The notes under the pieces: generated by a model
What the model was told of the DNA's origin: nothing
What the model saw: only the letters and a program-made list of their open reading frames with translations
The model's database searches: none
In this document: piece after piece, positions 35,550 to 62,879 of the stretch
Position numbering within the stretch: the first letter of the stretch is position 1
Layout: every line of letters starts with the position of its first letter
Source: Actinomycetota bacterium
GTDB lineage: Bacteria > Actinomycetota > Actinomycetes > S36-B12 > UBA5976
Length of the DNA stretch: 64,000 nucleotides
NCBI GenBank assembly: GCA_041170365.1
Contig: JBEAYY010000026.1
Span: forward strand, 5,527-69,526
Direction: 5' to 3'
Program-made: the position numbers and the translations under genes

Positions 35550-36083
35550 TTAGGAAATATAGCCTTTGCGCAAGGCCTTTGCCACAGAATGAGTCCTATT
35601 TGCAGTTTTGAGTTTAATTCTGATTCTTCGCAGATGAGTCTTTATAGTGGCATCTTGAATTTTTAAATTATGAGCTAATTTTTTATTATTTAAGCCATGA
35701 CTAATTAGAAACAATATTTCTTTTTCTCTTTTGCTTAAAAGCTTTATTTTTACTTTATTTAATTTTAAGTTGAATAGTAACTCTTTTAATTCCTTTAAAT
35801 CTGCATCAAAATAAATCCTTGTATCATTTAATTTTTTAACTTCTTTTTTCAAAGTTAAAATAATAAACTTATACTTGTTTAAGATCTCTTTTTGCTCTTT
35901 GGTTAGCAAATTGAATAACTGCTGATTTATAAAAACAAGATCCATATTTATATTTTTTATATAGATAAAAGCTTCTCTTATATTTTTCACTAACACAATT
36001 TGTGATGGAATTTTTGTTAGTTGCAGTTTTCTGTGGATAATTTTTCTTCTGGATAAGTTTTCATCTATTACAATTATGTTCAT
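35550..36083 (-). CDS. LuxR-type HTH regulator with phosphoacceptor-less receiver-like N-domain
   Basis: 177 aa. C-terminal LSKREKEILFLISHGLNNKKLAHNLKIQDATIKTHLRRIRIKL is a LuxR/GerE HTH. The N-terminus resembles REC (IIVIDEN, MDLVFIN) but has N53 where the phospho-Asp should be. It is strikingly AT-rich. Confidence 0.75.
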   Translation of the reverse strand: MNIIVIDENLSRRKIIHRKLQLTKIPSQIVLVKNIREAFIYIKNINMDLVFINQQLFNLLTKEQKEILNKYKFIILTLKKEVKKLNDTRIYFDADLKELKELLFNLKLNKVKIKLLSKREKEILFLISHGLNNKKLAHNLKIQDATIKTHLRRIRIKLKTANRTHSVAKALRKGYIS

Positions 36084-36119: not shown

Positions 36120-37193
36120 TTATAAACCTACTGAATTTGTTATTGCGGTTATGGTGCTAGTTAAATCACTGCTTCTTTTAAAATTACTTGGTAATTGCAT
36201 TGGCCAACCAGGACCTGCCACAAGCATTAAAGGACTTGGTCTTAAATGGCTTAAGTTTTCTAATTCAGGATCGATATTTTTAACAGGAATTTGTGCCCAA
36301 ATCAAAACCGCTGCAGGAGCTAGTCTTTTCACAGCATTTATTAAAGAAGAATATGGAACTCTTGCTCCTAAGACTTTGGAACTAATTCTTCTTTCAGCTA
36401 ACGCTGCTGCTGTCACATATTGCGGAATAGTGTGTAATTCATCAGGAGCAGATGCAGTAATAACAGGTCTTATGTTTACTGGTGCAATTAATTGATCTGC
36501 ACGAAGTCGCATTTGACCAATAATTGCTTCACTTAGAACATGTTCTGCTTCTATGCCTTCTCCTGTTTGTTCCCATTTAGCACCAATTGCAATTAAAACT
36601 TTTGAAATTAAATTTTCCCAAGTCCAAATAACACCTCGAGAATTAATACTTGCCCCAATTATTTGATTACAAGATTGGTTATCCATTGATTGAGCAGCTT
36701 TAGCAAGACCACGCGCTGCACTGGATGCTCCTTCCATTGATAAAACTTGACCACCACCTGGATGACCAAATTTTTCAGCGTGATCAAGGGTTTTAACTAA
36801 ATTTTCAATTTTGCTACTTAAAGAATTTGGATCAACTGGTGAAATGTTGGAAATATTTTCAACCTTGGTGCTCAAAGCAACTTTGGCAGCTTCTCCTGCG
36901 GGCATGCCTGATAAAACTAACTTTCGCATAATTTCTAAACGGGCTATATCTGTGATGCAATAGCGACGATGCCCACCTTGGGATCTATCTGTGGGGCAAA
37001 GGCCATATCGGCGCTCCCAGGTTCTCAAGGTCGCTGGAGCAACCCCCACACGCCTTGCCACCACGGCCACGGTAAGGCCCAGGGTGATGACGTTTTCTTC
37101 CTCAGGATTTAAACCCATGAGCATATTGTTCCCCAAGTGAACAACTTTGGCTAATCGAGGCTTTAGTGAGAGCGACTTCACAAAATTAGTCAT
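36120..37193 (-). CDS. MerR-family regulator with CarH/LitR-like B12-binding sensor module
   Basis: MerR HTH (TLRTWERRYGL...GGHRRY). W207-x9-E217-H218 (GAKWEQTGEGIEAEH), and E252-L-H254-T-I-P in the ExHxxG position, followed by a Rossmann-like segment. It is colinear by eye with Thermus CarH. The start could instead be M24/M26 (about 37124). Confidence 0.8.
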   Translation of the reverse strand: MTNFVKSLSLKPRLAKVVHLGNNMLMGLNPEEENVITLGLTVAVVARRVGVAPATLRTWERRYGLCPTDRSQGGHRRYCITDIARLEIMRKLVLSGMPAGEAAKVALSTKVENISNISPVDPNSLSSKIENLVKTLDHAEKFGHPGGGQVLSMEGASSAARGLAKAAQSMDNQSCNQIIGASINSRGVIWTWENLISKVLIAIGAKWEQTGEGIEAEHVLSEAIIGQMRLRADQLIAPVNIRPVITASAPDELHTIPQYVTAAALAERRISSKVLGARVPYSSLINAVKRLAPAAVLIWAQIPVKNIDPELENLSHLRPSPLMLVAGPGWPMQLPSNFKRSSDLTSTITAITNSVGL

Positions 37194-37269: not shown

Positions 37270-37569
37270 ATGGCTGACATAACCAGACTTCCTGGACCTA
37301 ATGCCGATCTTTGGGATTGGCAATTAAAAGGTGCTTGCCGTGGTGAAGATCCAGAAATCTTCTTTCACCCTGAAGGTGAGCGCGGACCTGCTCGCGAGCA
37401 AAGAATTGCTCTTGCGAAATCTATTTGTGCAACATGTCCTGTTTTAAAACAATGTGCAGCACATGCTCTAGAAGTTAGAGAACCATACGGTGTGTGGGGT
37501 GCGATGAGTGAAGATGATCGCGAAGCAATCTATGCACCAGTTAAAGAATCAATGCCAGTAGCTGGCTAA
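37270..37569 (+). CDS. whiB: WhiB-family Fe-S transcriptional regulator (WhiB3/WhiD-like)
   Basis: 99 aa. LPGPNADLWDWQLKGACRG...FFHPEGERG...C-x2-C-x5-C and GVWGAM. The N-terminus closely matches WhiB3/WhiD. Confidence 0.95.
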   Translation: MADITRLPGPNADLWDWQLKGACRGEDPEIFFHPEGERGPAREQRIALAKSICATCPVLKQCAAHALEVREPYGVWGAMSEDDREAIYAPVKESMPVAG

Positions 37570-37601
37570 CAAAACTTACCCTTCATAACCCTCCAAAAAA
37601 T

Positions 37602-37631
37602 AAGGGCTCTTGAATAAAATCAAGAGCCCTT
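37602..37631. terminator. bidirectional intrinsic terminator hairpin
   Basis: 12-bp perfect stem AAGGGCTCTTGA/TCAAGAGCCCTT with a 6-nt loop. A T6 run follows on the minus strand (downstream of the aldolase-SDR gene) and a T5 run lies nearby on the plus strand (downstream of whiB). Confidence 0.8.
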
Positions 37632-37647
37632 AAAACTTTTTATAAAT

Positions 37648-39675
37648 TTATCTTGGAAAAGCTGCTGCTACTCCACCATCTACTGCAATAACTGATCCTG
37701 TTGTTCTTGAAGAATCATCAGATAATAAATAACTTGTTGTTAAAGCAACATCTTTAGAAGTTACATGAACTTTTAACATATTTCTTGAGGCATAAAAATC
37801 TTCTAGTTCTTCTGGTTTAACACCATGAGCTTTAGCTCTTTGTTCTCTTATGCCACCTTCCCAAAGTTTTGAATTATCAAATATTGCATCAGGATTAATT
37901 GCATTTGCTCTAATTTGAGCTGAACCACCTTCAAGAGCAGCGATTCGCATTAATTGCAACATGCCAGCTTTACTTACTGAATAACCTCCAAAACCTGCAC
38001 CTGGTGAAAAAGCATTTTTACTAGCAATATAAACAAGCGATCCACCAATTCCTTGTTTGCGTAAATTAATCATGGCATGTTTTGTTAATAAAAATGAAGA
38101 AGTTAAATTAACAGCTAAACCTTGATTCCATTTTTCCAATGTTAGAGTTTCTAATGAATCTGAAACTCCAATTCCAGCACTCATTACAGCTCCATCAAAT
38201 CCGCCATAATTTTTAATAGCCGATTGAACTGTTTCTATAATTACATTTTCTTTACTTTGATCCCCCACAACAAAATGTGGTTTTAAACCTTTAACTTTTA
38301 AGATTTCTTCTTCAGTTTTCTTTAAACCATCTTCAGTTAGATCTGCTAAAACTAAATTGGCTCCATTTTCGGCTAATTCCAAAGCAATTCCCCTACCAAT
38401 TCCAGAACCTGCTCCAGTGACAATAAATACAGATCCAGCAAATTTCTTAGGTTTTGGTTTAGAACTTAATTTGAATAATTCCATTGGCCAGTAATCAAAT
38501 CCAAATATCTCTCTATCCCCAATAGTGTCTGCTTCACCAAAGCAATCAATTACTTTGGCAGCAACGCTATGGGTGTGAAATGCAATGTCTGAAAGCATTT
38601 TTCCTTCTTTTGTACTTTCCCCTGTAGTTATTGATCCAACTCCTGGAAGTAGTAAAACTCTTGGATCTGGATCGTGCATGAAATAGCCTTTAGGTAATAA
38701 ATCTTTATTTTTTTCAAAGTAATTTGTGTAATGCTCAACGTATTTAACAATTACTGGTAAAGAATTTTCTACAGTAGCTTTCTCAGGAAGCACTGCAGAC
38801 CAAGGTCTAATTCTTAACATGTGATCAGCACTTGAAGCACCTGCTTCTGCAACTTTTGCTAGATCTTTTCTTTTGCTGATTTCTTGTAAACGATTATCAA
38901 TAGTTAGAACTCTTTTTACTTTTTTACTTAATCTTCCTCGAAGTGCTAGCAATAAATCAGATAATTCTTGATCACTTGGTCCTGAGTGATCAAATTTTGC
39001 AGCTGGTTTAACTGATAAAGAATCAAGATATTTATTTGCTTTTTCAACAGCATTTATAGTTTTGTTCTTACACTTTTCACTATCATCATCCCAAACTATG
39101 AGTCCATGATGAGCTAAAACAATTCCAGCTTTTTCGCTAAATTGAGATGAATATTTACTTAATTCAAATCCAGGTCTAATCCAATCAACGTAAGCAAAAT
39201 CTTCACCTAAAGCTTCAGCTACAGCTTTTTTACCTCCAGGATGATTAGTTAATGCACAAATTGCATCAGCATGAACGTGATCAATATGTTTGGAGGGTAA
39301 AAATGCGTGAAGCAAAGTTTCAATAGAAGGTCTTCTACTATTTGGATCTACTAAAGCTTTGCCAACTAAATCAGTCATTTCTTCATCAGATAATTTTTCA
39401 AATTGCTTTAAACTTAATAACTCTTCTAAATAAAGTGCTGGGTAATCAATGGCAACTGCATTTGTCATGTCAGCACCAGAACCTTTGACCCAAAGGACAG
39501 TTCTTTTTCTACCTAGATGATCTGTAATTTCACCTTTCGCTGAAGTGTTACCTCCACCAAAAACCACTAAAGATTGATCTGCACCTATAAATTGTGATCT
39601 TGTTACTAATTCTTCTAGTGCTTTTGGAGTTTGATTCAATTTATTTTCCTGATTTCCTTTTTGCTGGAGTTTCAC
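37648..39675 (-). CDS. bifunctional class II aldolase / short-chain dehydrogenase fusion (RhaEW/YuxG-like)
   Basis: 675 aa. N-terminal aldolase_II/adducin-like domain (VVFGGGNTSAKG, HVHAD). C-terminal SDR domain (TGAGSGIGRG, YSVSKAG). The start overlaps the end of mtnA by 35 nt. Confidence 0.9.
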   Translation of the reverse strand: MKLQQKGNQENKLNQTPKALEELVTRSQFIGADQSLVVFGGGNTSAKGEITDHLGRKRTVLWVKGSGADMTNAVAIDYPALYLEELLSLKQFEKLSDEEMTDLVGKALVDPNSRRPSIETLLHAFLPSKHIDHVHADAICALTNHPGGKKAVAEALGEDFAYVDWIRPGFELSKYSSQFSEKAGIVLAHHGLIVWDDDSEKCKNKTINAVEKANKYLDSLSVKPAAKFDHSGPSDQELSDLLLALRGRLSKKVKRVLTIDNRLQEISKRKDLAKVAEAGASSADHMLRIRPWSAVLPEKATVENSLPVIVKYVEHYTNYFEKNKDLLPKGYFMHDPDPRVLLLPGVGSITTGESTKEGKMLSDIAFHTHSVAAKVIDCFGEADTIGDREIFGFDYWPMELFKLSSKPKPKKFAGSVFIVTGAGSGIGRGIALELAENGANLVLADLTEDGLKKTEEEILKVKGLKPHFVVGDQSKENVIIETVQSAIKNYGGFDGAVMSAGIGVSDSLETLTLEKWNQGLAVNLTSSFLLTKHAMINLRKQGIGGSLVYIASKNAFSPGAGFGGYSVSKAGMLQLMRIAALEGGSAQIRANAINPDAIFDNSKLWEGGIREQRAKAHGVKPEELEDFYASRNMLKVHVTSKDVALTTSYLLSDDSSRTTGSVIAVDGGVAAAFPR

Positions 39676-40663
39676 CTTCTGAAACTTCGATTACACCTAA
39701 TTGAGTAACTATTGCTGAAATATATTTTGCCGGAGTGACGTCAAATGCTGGGTTGTAGCCCCTTGATTCTAGAGGTGCTACGCGTTGTCCATTGAAATTC
39801 AAAATTTCTGAGTCATCTCTTAATTCAATTTCAATTTCTTCTCCAGATAAACAATTCAAATCAATAGTTGATTCTGGTGCAATAACTAAAAAAGGAATAT
39901 TTGCTTCATAGCAAGCAAGTGCAACTGATAAAGATCCAATTTTATTTGCAGTATCACCATTTGCAGCGATGCGATCTGCGCCGATTAATGCAACGTCAAC
40001 TTTTTTTCTAAGTATTGTGCTTGAAGCAGCGCCATCTGCTAAAACCAAATGCGGAATTTTATTTTGGACTAATTCCCACGCAGTTAATCTAGAACCTTGT
40101 AATAAAGGCCTTGTTTCATCTGCATAAACTAATTCAACATTTCCTCTGTTTTGAAGTTCTCTTATAACACCAAAAGCTGTGCCCCATTCAGTTGTAGCAA
40201 GCATTCCAGTATTGCAATGAGTCAAAATATTTAATTTATTTTTTCCAGTTTTGTTTAAAATCCAATCTGCCGCATATTTTCCCATTTGTTTATTGCCATC
40301 TTCGTCTTCTTGGGCAATCTTGTGGGCTAGTTTTAAAACTTCATTTCTACCTTCATTAATTATTTGATGTGCTTGATCTGCTCCCCAAGCAAGATTTACA
40401 GCTGTTGGTCTGGCATTTCTGATTCTAAGAATTTGTTTTTCGAGTTCTTTTTCATCCCAGTTTTCTTTTTTAGCTTGATCCATGGCAGTAACTACGCCAT
40501 AAGCGCCAGTAGCACCTAAGGCTGGAGCGCCTCTAACAGCTAATGAAACGATGGCATCAATTAATTGATCAACTTTTAAAACTTCAATAAATTCAATTTT
40601 GTGAGGAATTTTGGTTTGATCCAATAATCTTAGATGATCTTCAACCCACTCAATGGCTCTCAT
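39641..40663 (-). CDS. mtnA: S-methyl-5-thioribose-1-phosphate isomerase (eIF-2B alpha/beta/delta family)
   Basis: 340 aa. LRLLDQTKIP, RGAPALGA, THCNTG, GADRIAANGDTANKIG. Confidence 0.9.
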   Translation of the reverse strand: MRAIEWVEDHLRLLDQTKIPHKIEFIEVLKVDQLIDAIVSLAVRGAPALGATGAYGVVTAMDQAKKENWDEKELEKQILRIRNARPTAVNLAWGADQAHQIINEGRNEVLKLAHKIAQEDEDGNKQMGKYAADWILNKTGKNKLNILTHCNTGMLATTEWGTAFGVIRELQNRGNVELVYADETRPLLQGSRLTAWELVQNKIPHLVLADGAASSTILRKKVDVALIGADRIAANGDTANKIGSLSVALACYEANIPFLVIAPESTIDLNCLSGEEIEIELRDDSEILNFNGQRVAPLESRGYNPAFDVTPAKYISAIVTQLGVIEVSEGETPAKRKSGK

Positions 40664-40745
40664 AAATTCCTTTTGTCGTCTATTTCACACAATACTGCTA
40701 TGACATTTAGCCAACTCTAAGAGTTAAATGTACTTGGAGGATTTA

Positions 40746-41261
40746 ATGAAAAATTTATGGAAAGTTCTTGCAATCTCTTGTATTTCTTTTTTTACTTTTG
40801 TCATCCCAAGTTTTGCTCACACAGAAGTTGTTAGTGTTGAGCCTGATGTAAGTCAAACTCTGACAATACTTCCGACTGAAGTTAAGTTATCTTTTTCTGA
40901 ACCAGTAATAGAAGATGGAACTTTTGCTTCAATTACTTCTGAATCAGGAAGTGTTGAAGCAAGTATTCGCATCGAAGAAGCAAATCTATTTATTTCAATT
41001 CCTCAAGACTTAACTGGAACAAGTTTTTCAATTGCTTATAAGACTGTGGCAAGTGATGGTCATCCATTAGATGGTGAACTTGTGTATCAATTAGATATCG
41101 AACAAGGCCAAACTAATGAAGAAGAAGTTATTGAATCTCCAATGCCTGTGATTGCACCAAATCCTGAAACAACTTCAAATATTTCTTGGTTGCAATGGTT
41201 GTCTTTGGGTGCAGCAATAGGGGTAGCAATTACTTTTTTCTTAAAAATGCGTAAAAAATAA
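40746..41261 (+). CDS. CopC-domain protein with C-terminal membrane anchor
   Basis: Signal peptide ending SFA/HTE (mature N-terminal His), then SADGH-like VASDGHPL. An acidic linker leads to a C-terminal TM helix. ATG at 40746 is preferred over the track start at 40728. Confidence 0.75.
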   Translation: MKNLWKVLAISCISFFTFVIPSFAHTEVVSVEPDVSQTLTILPTEVKLSFSEPVIEDGTFASITSESGSVEASIRIEEANLFISIPQDLTGTSFSIAYKTVASDGHPLDGELVYQLDIEQGQTNEEEVIESPMPVIAPNPETTSNISWLQWLSLGAAIGVAITFFLKMRKK

Positions 41262-60433: not shown

Positions 60434-61123
60434 ATGAATTCACCAGTTATAGGAATTTCTTGTTACGTTGAACCCGCTAAGTGGGGTGCTTGGGATATTA
60501 CTGCGGCAGTTTTACCTTTTGAATATGTTTCATCAGTTACCCAAAGTGGTGGACGTGCCGTAATTCTTCCCCCAGATGAACAAGGATCACACGTTTTAGA
60601 AAAATTAGATGGATTAATAATCGCAGGTGGTGCAGATATTGATGCAAGACTTTATAAACAAAATCCACATGAAACAAGTGATAAACCAAGAATAATTAGA
60701 GATGCTGGAGAAATAAGTCTTTATAAGAAAGCTAAAGAATTAAATATTCCTTTTTTAGGAATTTGTCGTGGACTTCAAATAATGGCGGTAAGTGAAGGTG
60801 GAACTTTAATCCAACATCTTCCAGATGTTACAAAACTAAATCATCGACCAGCACCTGCTCAATTTGTAAATCATGGTGCTCGTTTTACGAAAGATTCATT
60901 AATTTCAAAAATATTAAGCACCACAGAAACCATTGTTAATTCTTCTCATCATCAAGCAGTAGAAAATCCAGGAAACTTAACTATTACTGGTTGGGCCGAG
61001 GATGACACTATCGAAGTATTAGAAGATACAACTAGAGAATTTTCTTTAGGTGTGCAATGGCATCCTGAAATGAGTGATGATAAAAGATTATTCGAAGCTC
61101 TAATCAAAGCTTGTAAAAAATGA
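60434..61123 (+). CDS. class I glutamine amidotransferase-like, peptidase C26 (gamma-glutamyl-GABA hydrolase family)
   Basis: 229 aa. GICRGLQIM (nucleophile Cys), HHQAV, QWHPE. Confidence 0.85.
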   Translation: MNSPVIGISCYVEPAKWGAWDITAAVLPFEYVSSVTQSGGRAVILPPDEQGSHVLEKLDGLIIAGGADIDARLYKQNPHETSDKPRIIRDAGEISLYKKAKELNIPFLGICRGLQIMAVSEGGTLIQHLPDVTKLNHRPAPAQFVNHGARFTKDSLISKILSTTETIVNSSHHQAVENPGNLTITGWAEDDTIEVLEDTTREFSLGVQWHPEMSDDKRLFEALIKACKK

Positions 61124-62019
61124 AAATCAGTCCAAAAGTTCAAGAAGCCCTAAATAATAAAAAAGCCGTTGTGGCATTGGAGTCAACAATTATTGCCCAT
61201 GGTTTGCCGCGTCCTGATAATTTTAAAATCGCACAAGAAATTGAACAAGTTGTTATTGACCAAGGAGCAACCCCTGCAACTATTGCCATCTTAAATGGAG
61301 AAATTTGTGTAGGTCTTGATGAAAGTCAACTTACTCAAGTTGCAACTGATACAAATATTTTGAAACTTGGCATAAGAGATATTGCCCATTGTGTAACGAG
61401 AAAACAATCTGGGGCTACCACTGTTGCAAGTACTGCTTGGATTGCGCATTTAAGTGGAATAACAACATTTGCAACTGGTGGATTAGGTGGAGTACATAAA
61501 GGATCCATTGAAACATTCGATGAATCAGGTGACATCACCGCTTTAGCTCAAATTCCTATCGTGGTGGTCTCAAGTGGTATCAAATCTATTTTGGATGTTG
61601 CAGCAACTTTAGAAAGATTAGAAACTTGGCATGTGCCAGTTTATGGTTGGAAAACTAATGATTTTCCTGGATTTTGGATTAAAGATTCTGGTTTTGATAT
61701 CGGTGAAAAAGTAGAAAGTGTTGAAGAAGTAGCAGAAATTTATAAATTTAGAAAAACAAATGACTTCTCAGAATCAGTGCTTATTGCAAATCCTATTAAA
61801 AAGGAAGATGAATTTGATCCAAAACTTGAACAAAAAATATTAGAAAAAGGAATGAAATTAGCTAAAGAGCAAAATATTTCAGGTAAAGCTGTTACTCCAT
61901 TTCTACTAGGTTTAATGCATTCTGAATCTCAAGGCAAATCATTAAAAGCAAATGTGGCCCTAGTAAAAAGTAATGCTCAACTTGCTGCTCAAATTGCTGT
62001 AGCTATTTCCAAAAAATGA
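61120..62019 (+). CDS. psuG: pseudouridine-5'-phosphate glycosidase
   Basis: 299 aa. VVALESTIIAHGLPRP...GATTVA...TGGLGGVH (IndA/PsuG family). Confidence 0.92.
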   Translation: MKISPKVQEALNNKKAVVALESTIIAHGLPRPDNFKIAQEIEQVVIDQGATPATIAILNGEICVGLDESQLTQVATDTNILKLGIRDIAHCVTRKQSGATTVASTAWIAHLSGITTFATGGLGGVHKGSIETFDESGDITALAQIPIVVVSSGIKSILDVAATLERLETWHVPVYGWKTNDFPGFWIKDSGFDIGEKVESVEEVAEIYKFRKTNDFSESVLIANPIKKEDEFDPKLEQKILEKGMKLAKEQNISGKAVTPFLLGLMHSESQGKSLKANVALVKSNAQLAAQIAVAISKK

Positions 62020-62879
62020 CTGTAAAAATCATTTTTGTTGGAGATGTCATGCAAGACATCTTGATATCCCATAAAGAGAAAATAGCTTTTGGTTCAGATA
62101 CTCAAGCAAACATTAAAATGCAAGGCGGAGGATCAGCTACTAATGCAGCTGTTTGGGCTTCAACTTTAAATACAGAAGTTGGATTAGTTGCAAGAATTGG
62201 TGATGACAATGCAGGAAAAATTATTTTAGAAGAACTAAATAAACCAAATCTAAATTTAAATTTGGTTAAAACAGAAAATGTTTCAAGTGGAAGTTGTGCC
62301 ATATTGATTGATGCAACTGGAGAAAGAACTATGTTTCCAGATCCTGGAGCAAATATATTTTTAACAAGTCAAGATGTTCCAAAAGAATGGTTTAAGCAAG
62401 CAGAAATTATTCATATTTCGGCATACAGTCTTTTAAGAAAAAATACCAAAAATGCAATTGGAGAAATTATAGAAATTGCTAAAGATAATGGATTAAAAAC
62501 TTCAGTTGATGTCGCCTCAAGTCAGCCTTTAATTGATAATGATGGGTTTAATGCCTTAAAAGAACTAGCCCCTTGGGATTATTTATTTGCAAATAAAGAT
62601 GAAGCTGAAGTTTTAGGAGATATTAAAAAAATAAAATCTTTAAGTAAAAATCTTATTTTAAAACAAGGCAGTAAAGAAAGTCTTTGGATTACAGACAATA
62701 CTGAAATAAAAGATATTCCAGATAAAGTAGAGGTCGTGGATTTAATTGGAGCAGGTGATGCGTTTGCTGCAGGATTTTTAGTAAGTGTCATCAGCAAAGA
62801 TAAACCACAAATTACTTTAAAAAAAGCAAACCAATTAGGTGCAAAAGCAGTAAGTATTAGTGGAGCAAGACCGCTATAG
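62016..62879 (+). CDS. psuK: PfkB-family carbohydrate kinase (probable pseudouridine kinase)
   Basis: 287 aa. GGGSATNAA and DLIGAGDAFAAGF. It is translationally coupled to psuG (ATGA overlap). Confidence 0.8.
   Translation: MTVKIIFVGDVMQDILISHKEKIAFGSDTQANIKMQGGGSATNAAVWASTLNTEVGLVARIGDDNAGKIILEELNKPNLNLNLVKTENVSSGSCAILIDATGERTMFPDPGANIFLTSQDVPKEWFKQAEIIHISAYSLLRKNTKNAIGEIIEIAKDNGLKTSVDVASSQPLIDNDGFNALKELAPWDYLFANKDEAEVLGDIKKIKSLSKNLILKQGSKESLWITDNTEIKDIPDKVEVVDLIGAGDAFAAGFLVSVISKDKPQITLKKANQLGAKAVSISGARPL

Follow-up and report, generated by a model that had tools for sequence, protein, structure and literature searches.

What is the function of an mtnA gene, encoding a 5-(methylthio/deoxy)ribose-1-phosphate isomerase, when the gene behind it encodes a class II aldolase fused to a short-chain dehydrogenase/reductase (SDR)? 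This question is raised by a stretch of 64,000 nt from a contig of an aquatic actinobacterium with a small genome (JBEAYY010000026.1, assembly GCA_041170365.1), referred to here as the window and numbered with the first letter of its forward strand as position 1. The window has a G+C content of 35%, and the pair lies among actinobacterial markers, namely whiB, groES/groEL, a PIG-L deacetylase gene and a GuaB-like gene. Judged from their sequences, the two genes probably make up a minimal unit, coupled in translation, that salvages 5-substituted ribose derived from S-adenosylmethionine (SAM), a fused variant of the dihydroxyacetone phosphate (DHAP) shunt. A preliminary description of the locus had proposed a candidate fused DHAP-shunt module, and all the in silico checks that were run came out in its favour. 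The unit consists of two intact minus-strand open reading frames (ORFs), found where that description had placed them, with mtnA first and the fusion second:

39641..40663, minus strand: mtnA, which opens the unit and encodes a 5-(methylthio/deoxy)ribose-1-phosphate isomerase of 340 aa (ORF, TIGR00512 and IF-2B)
37648..39639, minus strand: aldolase-SDR fusion, likely 663 aa, with start TTG at 39639 and stop codon at 37648-37650
37648..39675, minus strand: longest ORF of the fusion, 675 aa, with a GTG start (ORF list)
38971..39618, minus strand: class II aldolase domain at the N-terminus of the fusion (PF00596, residues 33-212)
38461..38970, minus strand: middle, mostly helical linker domain of the fusion, residues about 236-405, typical of the fusion family
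37651..38460, minus strand: C-terminal classical SDR domain of the fusion, residues about 406-675 (adh_short_C2)

The coupled pair and its active sites

With the NCBIfam model TIGR00512 (salvage_mtnA), the product of the first gene reaches 400.7 bits, the cut-off being 279, and it matches Pfam IF-2B at E 2e-67, while the NCBIfam model for ribose-1,5-bisphosphate isomerase stays far below its cut-off. It aligns over its full length with the solved MtnAs of Thermotoga, Pyrococcus and Bacillus (1t9k, 6a34, 2yrf/2yvk) at E ~1e-70, with its Cys motif (THCN(T/A)G) and its Asp motif (GADRIA-NGD) conserved. The MtnA-type identity given to this gene at the outset is thereby confirmed.

The second gene had been said to start 35 nt before the mtnA stop, an overlap that belongs to the longest ORF only and is probably an artefact. 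The likely start predicted from the sequence is TTG 39639, which gives a protein of 663 aa, because the N-termini of homologues begin at residue 13 of the window fusion, the homologue P0001 (94% identical to the fusion) is 663 aa long, the ENA gene call on an identical contig places the start 1 nt after the mtnA stop (again 663 aa), and the TTG is preceded by AGGAAA. The RhaEW/YuxG architecture originally ascribed to the fusion stands, whereas the accompanying length of 675 aa probably does not. Tight coupling of the two genes holds under either start, since 98 of 116 related loci show a 4-nt overlap (NTGA) between the fusion's start codon and the stop of mtnA.

With residue numbers that follow the 675-aa form, Pfam places Aldolase_II (PF00596) at residues 33-212 and adh_short/adh_short_C2 (PF00106/PF13561) at residues 416-669, the adh_short_C2 match of the SDR domain having an E of 1e-42, and the NCBIfam models of bifunctional aldolase/SDR proteins align with it over its whole length. 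An alignment of 22 diverse fusions shows no variation at N43, S45, K47, K64, S66, G67, S117, H123, H133, H135, P168, G169, H190 or G191, and at least 90% of the sequences have E119. The same alignment leaves the GGGNTS and KGSG phosphate-binding motifs of the aldolase domain unchanged; its three histidine metal ligands (H133, H135, H190) and the catalytic glutamate E119 are those that mark the class II aldolase superfamily. Absence of the zinc or catalytic residues, which the preliminary description had named as a finding that would speak against it, is not what is seen: these residues are present and conserved.

Direct alignments of the aldolase domain with E. coli FucA (phmmer, hmmsearch, hhalign) were partial or unreliable, and these comparisons were replaced by a search of a 22-sequence aldolase profile against the PDB. 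This profile reaches the solved structures of FucA, RhaD, AraD and MtnB, matching HxH to the 'HTH' metal ligands, PSxE to the catalytic-Glu motif and HG to the third histidine; FucA-like structures are matched by the profile only, at E values between 1e-6 and 0.03. The structure closest to the domain is 3m4r, the N-terminal aldolase domain of a Thermoplasma acidophilum homologue (TM 0.83). By sequence, the domain is of the RhaE type and is not an orthologue of Ald2/DrdA, with which it has the fold and the metal site in common.

The middle domain has no Pfam match, is modelled confidently as helices with small sheets and contains an invariant FDYWPME motif. In the SDR domain, TGAGSGIG at residues 420-427, Asp445 at the end of beta-2, N523, S552 and Y565-x3-K569 are invariant within the clade, so that the TGxxxGxG cofactor motif and the N-S-Y-K tetrad of classical SDRs are both present. 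Asp445, at this position of an SDR, is presumably a mark of NAD(H) preference, and the best Foldseek matches of the domain are NAD(H)-type SDRs (TM 0.8-0.87). The AlphaFold2 model of the fusion has a pLDDT of 83 and a pTM of 0.84; no solved full-length structure of such a fusion is among the Foldseek matches.

The ratio of nonsynonymous to synonymous substitution rates (dN/dS), calculated between the window and the 93% identical locus L004, is 0.066 for mtnA and 0.057 for the whole fusion. Within the fusion it is 0.039 for the aldolase domain, 0.033 for the SDR domain and 0.105 for the middle domain, which is the least constrained part. These values show that the minimal mtnA-fusion pair is maintained by selection. 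The window and the two loci nearest to it, L004 and L014, are the most reduced recovered, holding the pair and none of the accessory genes of other clade members, and for this reason the window pair might be regarded as the decaying, non-functional remnant of a larger operon after loss of mtnK, an ATP-binding cassette (ABC) transporter, a RuBisCO-like protein (RLP) and a transketolase. However, both ORFs are intact and under the constraint just given, strongest in the catalytic domains; both proteins are identical on the contig JBMSKJ010000002.1 of a metagenome-assembled genome (MAG; GCA_049419805.1) and on 18 other contigs; and several other sublineages have independently retained the pair alone. 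A decaying remnant is therefore extremely improbable. As dN/dS is about 0.06 for both genes in the minimal loci of the window and L004, the pair appears sufficient on its own.

Linkage to mtnA and separation from rhamnose loci

When one genome per species was scanned for the fusion, 172 relatives came back, and the analysis covers the best 80 of the 172, all of which are actinobacterial MAGs or genomes with fusions 57-93% identical to that of the window. Many of them carry the names Nanopelagicales, Nanopelagicaceae or Planktophila, which belong to the acI lineage, a group that ranks among the most abundant bacteria of fresh water. Of the 69 genome loci whose sequence extends at least 900 bp upstream of the fusion, 65 have mtnA as the next gene upstream, on the same strand, and so do 34 of 38 informative metagenome loci; as the two sets have some contigs in common, their counts are independent only in part. 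Among the 125 full-length fusion genes of the clade that were placed in a tree, all of them from the recovered loci, mtnA precedes 112, the DNA upstream of 5 is too short for a judgement, and 8 lack it. The linkage extends to a homologue with only 49% identity on a contig of 69% G+C, where the fusion is flanked by mtnA and mtnK.

Of the eight fusions without mtnA, one is a probable chimera, four are coupled to xylose isomerase, and three have PfkB/Dak or lyxose-isomerase-like neighbours. The four lie beside an Arthrobacter-type xylose isomerase gene, a CUT1 ABC transporter and a GntR regulator (L131:880-9243; also L130, L133 and L135). The three have either a divergent PfkB kinase with Dak1/Dak2 (L016:7186-11974, L015) or a lyxose-isomerase-like cupin with an MFS transporter (L020:653-5495). 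The switched genes form two small sub-clades nested within the mtnA-linked clade. The nearest representatives outside the clade (P0131, P0128, P0125 and P0124) showed no linkage to mtnA or lay on contigs too short for it to be seen, and a metagenome scan seeded with P0123 recovered mostly the window clade again, not close relatives of P0123. Since linkage prevails throughout the clade, down to 49% identity, while the exceptions are nested and the nearest outsiders are unlinked or on short contigs, coupling to mtnA appears to be ancestral to the clade and to have been followed by occasional partner switching. Such swaps within an mtnA-linked clade suggest that the fusion is a reusable cassette for ketose-1-phosphate cleavage plus aldehyde conversion.

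The probable chimera, L006, was considered as a triple fusion of MtnA, aldolase and SDR (a 956-aa ORF, L006:43-2913). This candidate was rejected: the upstream part of the ORF, which stands in frame where mtnA would be expected, is a TPR-repeat protein, the MAG contig measures 5.8 kb, and the join is likely an assembly artefact.

Proteins of this architecture are known from rhamnose catabolism, and the pair could be imagined as an ordinary RhaEW (rhamnulose-1-phosphate aldolase/lactaldehyde dehydrogenase) to which mtnA is adjacent by chance. Several homologues bear the JGI name 'rhamnulose-1-phosphate aldolase/alcohol dehydrogenase', and the fusion reaches 528.6 bits with TIGR02632, just under the cut-off of 567.75. 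However, it misses every curated threshold, scoring below the cut-off of all 11 NCBIfam bifunctional aldolase/SDR models (496 versus 634 for NF006189), and is only 31-38% identical to the fusions of Deinococcus, Rhizobium and Streptomyces that are linked to rhamnose genes. Phylogenetic placement, one of the checks proposed in the preliminary description, sets the window clade apart from these anchors in a neighbour-joining tree built from 123 full-length members of the family, which includes 50%-identity cluster representatives; the family comprises about 600 such representatives at E <1e-30. The closest plasmid-borne homologues are less than 38% identical.

The gene content of the loci points in the same direction. 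Searches by tblastn with RhaI, RhaB and RhaK as references gave no match anywhere in the window, nor in the loci of its clade, 80 of them from genomes and 67 from metagenomes. The Pfam annotation, which covers most of the window except around 53-54 kb, shows no rhamnose genes either, in agreement with the earlier statement that such genes are lacking here. Across the window and about 145 related loci, neither rhaI, rhaA, rhaB or rhaK nor a rhamnose transporter is present, so that a consistent association with rhamnose genes in relatives, which would have told against the shunt, is not found; neighbourhood statistics likewise place most fusions of the clade beside mtnA and none beside rhaI, rhaB or rhaK. 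The same searches recognised rhamnose loci in the positive controls L084, L085 and L091, where the fusions of Deinococcus, Rhizobium phaseoli and Streptomyces lie among rhaI, rhamnulokinase, rhaS-type ABC genes, rhaM and lutABC. These controls agree with the report of Rodionova et al. that RhaEW orthologues always occur inside rhamnose loci (PMC3870299), a rule that also argues against RhaEW function in the window. With mtnA linkage retained over 49-93% identity and accompanied by the 4-nt overlap, an incidental neighbourhood is highly improbable. Metabolic reconstructions that trusted the JGI names mentioned above would wrongly infer rhamnose use.

The likeness to RhaEW (YuxG) is nevertheless substantial, as both have a class II aldolase, a helical middle domain and a classical SDR, with the aldolase and SDR motifs kept family-wide, and both probably follow the common logic of cleaving a ketose-1-phosphate and converting the aldehyde immediately. 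What distinguishes the window fusion is its separate clade, its score below the TIGR02632 cut-off, its coupling to mtnA and its occurrence in no rhamnose locus.

The predicted salvage route and the wider operon

In the route that we consider probable, a phosphorylase or kinase encoded elsewhere would supply 5-deoxyribose-1-phosphate, originating from 5'-deoxyadenosine, and/or 5-methylthioribose-1-phosphate, originating from methylthioadenosine (MTA). MtnA would isomerise both to the corresponding ribulose-1-phosphates, and the metal-dependent class II aldolase domain would cleave these into DHAP and either acetaldehyde or 2-(methylthio)acetaldehyde. The aldehyde would be converted at once by the SDR domain, which is of the NAD(H) type. 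By analogy with RhaEW, oxidation of the aldehyde to acetate or (methylthio)acetate is the direction that may rather be expected; it is quite possible that the domain instead reduces it to the alcohol, the outcome known from R. rubrum.

A characterised precedent for such a fusion is RhaEW itself, for which aldolase activity and NAD+-dependent oxidation of lactaldehyde to lactate are proven; the enzyme is inactive with NADH, and its cleavage products went undetected when NAD+ was omitted (PMC3870299). Beaudoin et al. point out that the equilibria of aldol cleavage strongly favour condensation (PMC6079011), and this gives a reason for fusing a step that consumes the aldehyde. An effectively irreversible oxidation within the same polypeptide would pull the unfavourable cleavage and avoid the release of a free toxic aldehyde.

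Several points weigh against the salvage route. The characterised relatives of the aldolase domain cleave rhamnulose-1-phosphate, which has the opposite C4 configuration to that of the expected substrate, so that the window enzyme would need 3R,4R stereospecificity in place of the 3R,4S of rhamnulose-1-phosphate, and the domain has no orthology to Ald2/DrdA. The paralogues within the clade that exchanged mtnA for xylose isomerase, for PfkB kinase with Dak or for a lyxose-isomerase-like protein show that specificity in this family is easily shifted and is for this reason not readable from similarity alone; the activity of clade members is a prediction from sequence. Oxidation of an aldehyde by an SDR is unusual chemistry, known from a single study only. 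Finally, the annotated parts of the window contain no gene for MtnP, MtnN, MtnK or spermidine synthase and none of the PNP or APH families, and since no gene for an entry enzyme was found there, the sugar-1-phosphate would have to be supplied by an enzyme whose gene lies beyond the window.

A gene for S-adenosylhomocysteine hydrolase (AdoHcyase) lies a few kb beyond the start of the window (L102:2592-4061). Because of it, the organism probably handles S-adenosylhomocysteine without an MtnN/LuxS route, which bears on the question of which enzyme cleaves MTA and 5'-deoxyadenosine.

The relatives show what such a unit can be part of. Their synteny with the window includes tsaE-tsaB-rimI-tsaD, groES/EL and, further on, whiB, merR and the IMP dehydrogenase (IMPDH) gene, and in many of them a longer operon occupies the interval between groEL and whiB. 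It consists of a divergent GntR/UTRA regulator gene followed by mtnA, the fusion, a ribose-type ABC transporter, mtnK, a SnoaL-like protein, a split transketolase and an RLP (for example L001:8101-20355; also L007, L008, L012, L013, L052, L060, L061, L065, L067 and L083). Of the 28 genome loci whose downstream sequence reaches 8 kb or more, the RLP is present in 19, the transketolase in 13, MtnK in 11 and the transporter in 10. The APH-family kinase of these operons passes the MtnK equivalog model TIGR01767 with 382.3 bits against a cut-off of 275. The nearest solved structure to the RLP is 3qfw (E 1.5e-60, full length), an RLP of the DeepYkr type; the best NCBIfam match of the operon's RLP is the model of the MtnW enolase, at 193 bits versus a cut-off of 409. 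For the DeepYkr clade, the known reaction is the 1,3-isomerisation of 5-methylthioribulose-1-phosphate (MTRu-1-P), the only known substrate (PMC5893883), and the RLP of the relatives is probably of this MTRu-1-P-using type. No cupin methylsulfurylase gene occurs in the Pfam-annotated loci of relatives, and MtnC, MtnX and MtnD are absent from every Pfam-annotated locus.

This operon also lends some support to a different substrate. The pair might act on another pentose-1-phosphate, for instance on ribose-1-phosphate from nucleoside phosphorolysis, which would become ribulose-1-phosphate, then DHAP and glycolaldehyde, and from the latter glycolate, or on another 5-modified ribose taken up from the water, in either case as part of nucleoside or pentose catabolism. 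The ribose-type transporter and the GntR/UTRA sugar regulator suggest an exogenous sugar, the switch to xylose isomerase or PfkB kinase within the clade speaks for broad use of ketose phosphates, and class II ribulose-1-phosphate aldolases exist in halophilic archaea. Nevertheless, MtnA and MtnK both pass equivalog models of methylthioribose enzymes, the RLP of the operon points to the MTRu-1-P isomerase clade, and the window unit, having neither transporter nor kinase, is better suited to an endogenous substrate. Furthermore, the kinase DrdK accepts 5-deoxyribose and methylthioribose (MTR) and does not accept ribose (PMC6079011). Such nucleoside or pentose catabolism is accordingly an unlikely role for the pair.

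In a second alternative, the N-terminal domain would act on MTRu-1-P as a dehydratase similar to MtnB, or else as an epimerase, with the SDR, joined by the RLP in relatives, processing the diketone in a variant of methionine salvage. MtnB has the same class II aldolase fold and metal ligands, the aldolase profile weakly matches MtnB/APIP (4m6r), the Bacillus RLPs are enolases acting after MtnB (PMC6302742), and the best NCBIfam match of the RLP is an MtnW enolase model, even if its score amounts to less than half of the cut-off. The family to which the domain belongs, however, is of the RhaE type, whose characterised members are aldolases (PMC3870299). The enzymes that would follow MtnB, namely MtnC, MtnX and MtnD, are missing from the annotated loci, and the affinity of the RLP is to 3qfw and not to the YkrW enolases. 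As the minimal loci contain mtnA and the fusion only, the product must moreover enter central metabolism directly, and a dehydratase variant is very unlikely.

Returning to the SAM-linked salvage unit, the same set of genes recurs at a great phylogenetic distance. Three plasmids of Rhizobiaceae carry the fusion, an ABC transporter, MtnK, MtnA and a split transketolase: L087:411-10459 (NT-25), L088:9875-21551 (Ensifer adhaerens) and L089:9893-21298 (Rhizobium grahamii). The RLP was also detected on L088 and L089, while L087 ends inside the transketolase gene. Their fusion is about 31% identical to that of the window and lies on a distant branch of the family tree, and an association of fusions with MtnA and MtnK is for this reason present, by sequence, in at least two distant branches of the family. 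The C-terminal subunit of the transketolase is 59-60% identical, which suggests that the accessory genes may have spread horizontally.

On this basis, the pair can tentatively, though with considerable doubt, be seen as the core of a larger MTR/5-deoxyribose pathway that is horizontally common to Nanopelagicales-type actinobacteria and Rhizobiaceae and includes a sulfur branch of RLP and split transketolase. In this wider pathway, the aldolase-SDR branch would recover carbon, and the RLP would make 1-methylthio-xylulose-5-phosphate, or 1-deoxyxylulose-5-phosphate (DXP) from the 5-deoxy sugar. The split transketolase would stand in place of the cupin methylsulfurylase: its cleavage would yield glyceraldehyde-3-phosphate and a C2-thiamine adduct that expels methanethiol, in an elimination resembling that of phosphoketolase. 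An alternative fate of the RLP product, perhaps methanethiol release for sulfur recovery, is speculative and concerns the relatives and not the window directly. Bacteria of the acI lineage depend on reduced sulfur, and such a branch, if true, would allow oxygen-independent sulfur recovery from MTA or from dissolved methylthioribose.

Surroundings of the unit and its place among known pathways

Two further features delimit the unit:

37601..37632, both strands: bidirectional intrinsic terminator closing the unit (hairpin scan and folding energy)
40664..40745, no strand assigned: intergenic region that separates mtnA from the divergent copC-like gene (sequence read)

The terminator has a 13-bp stem with 6 G-C pairs followed by TTTTTT, the T-run being on the minus strand. 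Its folding energy is -23.3 kcal/mol (z = -5.4), and none of 200 shuffled sequences folds as well, in agreement with the strong terminator first noted at 37602-37631. It is common to the unit and to the convergent whiB gene (37270-37569, plus strand), scoring on both strands with a weaker T-run on the plus strand. At the other end, the copC-like gene (40728-41261) runs divergently and encodes a CopC domain with a C-terminal membrane segment. The gap of 82 nt reported between it and mtnA is correct for the 171-aa CopC start of the NCBI gene call; with the longest ORF it shrinks to 64 nt. A sigma-70-type scan of 40664-40745 gave no minus-strand site and no convincing promoter upstream of mtnA, although the promoter of the pair presumably lies within this interval. 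The copC-like gene sits where relatives carry the divergent GntR/UTRA regulator gene of the operon, which the window does not have, and the window unit thus appears to have lost its dedicated regulator.

Two other regulatory genes adjoin whiB on the far side of the terminator: a MerR-family regulator with a long C-terminal extension (36120-37193), whose best NCBIfam match is CarH, far below the cut-off, and a small LuxR/GerE-type regulator (35550-36083). The gene order whiB-merR-IMPDH is kept in relatives. Elsewhere, at 61120-62879, an Indigoidine_A (PsuG-like) gene and an adjoining PfkB kinase (PsuK-like) gene form an apparent pseudouridine catabolism pair, with flanking genes for an SDR and for a class-I glutamine amidotransferase-like protein.

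The closest known parallel is the DHAP shunt, or 5-deoxyribose disposal pathway, which uses MtnP or MtnN with MtnK, then MtnA/DrdI and Ald2/DrdA, and is known from R. rubrum, R. palustris, extraintestinal pathogenic E. coli (ExPEC) and B. thuringiensis (PMC6079011, PMC10986504, PMC12632272). As in the shunt, one operon encodes an MtnA-type isomerase and, after it, a class II aldolase that is metal-dependent, and the MtnK, sugar transporter and divergent repressor of the relatives reproduce the layout of the drd and E. coli operons (PMC6079011, PMC12632272). The differences lie in the aldolase, here a RhaE-type domain of about 400 residues in place of the FucA-like Ald2/DrdA of about 215 aa; in the SDR, here fused to the aldolase, whereas known shunts use a separately encoded alcohol dehydrogenase (PMC13474568); and in the window pair having no adjoining entry enzyme. 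From the sequence comparison, the module may be described as DHAP-shunt-like, with a non-orthologous RhaE-type aldolase and a fused aldehyde-processing step as its new parts.

Two other systems offer partial parallels. The MTA-isoprenoid shunt of R. rubrum and R. palustris consists of MtnP, MtnA, a DeepYkr RLP and a cupin methylsulfurylase, and a 3qfw-like RLP lies downstream of the fusion in the relatives, not in the window. Because the RLP follows the fusion, two branches from MTRu-1-P, one through the aldolase and one through the RLP, would coexist in these relatives, as has been shown genetically in R. palustris (PMC5893883). The relatives differ from that shunt in having a split transketolase and a SnoaL-like protein beside the RLP, with no cupin among the Pfam-annotated loci, and in joining both branches in one operon. 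The fluorometabolite pathway of Streptomyces cattleya follows the same chemical course, from a 5-substituted ribose-1-phosphate through the ribulose-1-phosphate to DHAP and a substituted acetaldehyde that becomes an acid (PMC6079011, PMC6302742). There, however, the phosphorylase, MtnA-like isomerase, fuculose-1-phosphate-type aldolase and aldehyde dehydrogenase are separate enzymes, the aldolase belongs to another subfamily, the dehydrogenase is not an SDR, and the pathway serves specialised metabolism.

A review of July 2026 lists only two characterised variants of the DHAP shunt and gives the aldehyde-reducing enzyme as unknown (PMC13474568). The literature searched, to which key subscription papers did not belong, contains no mention of an aldolase-SDR fusion with mtnA, in keeping with the preliminary description of the variant as uncharacterised, and nothing on Nanopelagicales in connection with RLP/MTA or on a DeepYkr RLP with transketolase, although an earlier mention of either is possible.

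The fused dehydrogenase is consequently a concrete candidate for the aldehyde step of the DHAP shunt, and the fusion itself has a thermodynamic rationale in the pulling of an unfavourable cleavage. The extended operon of the relatives, with its RLP and split transketolase, points to an uncharacterised fate of the RLP product. The module is near-universal in the recovered relatives and survives where the accessory genes have been lost, and this persistence suggests that the disposal of by-products of radical-SAM enzymes and polyamine synthesis is not dispensable even in streamlined genomes.

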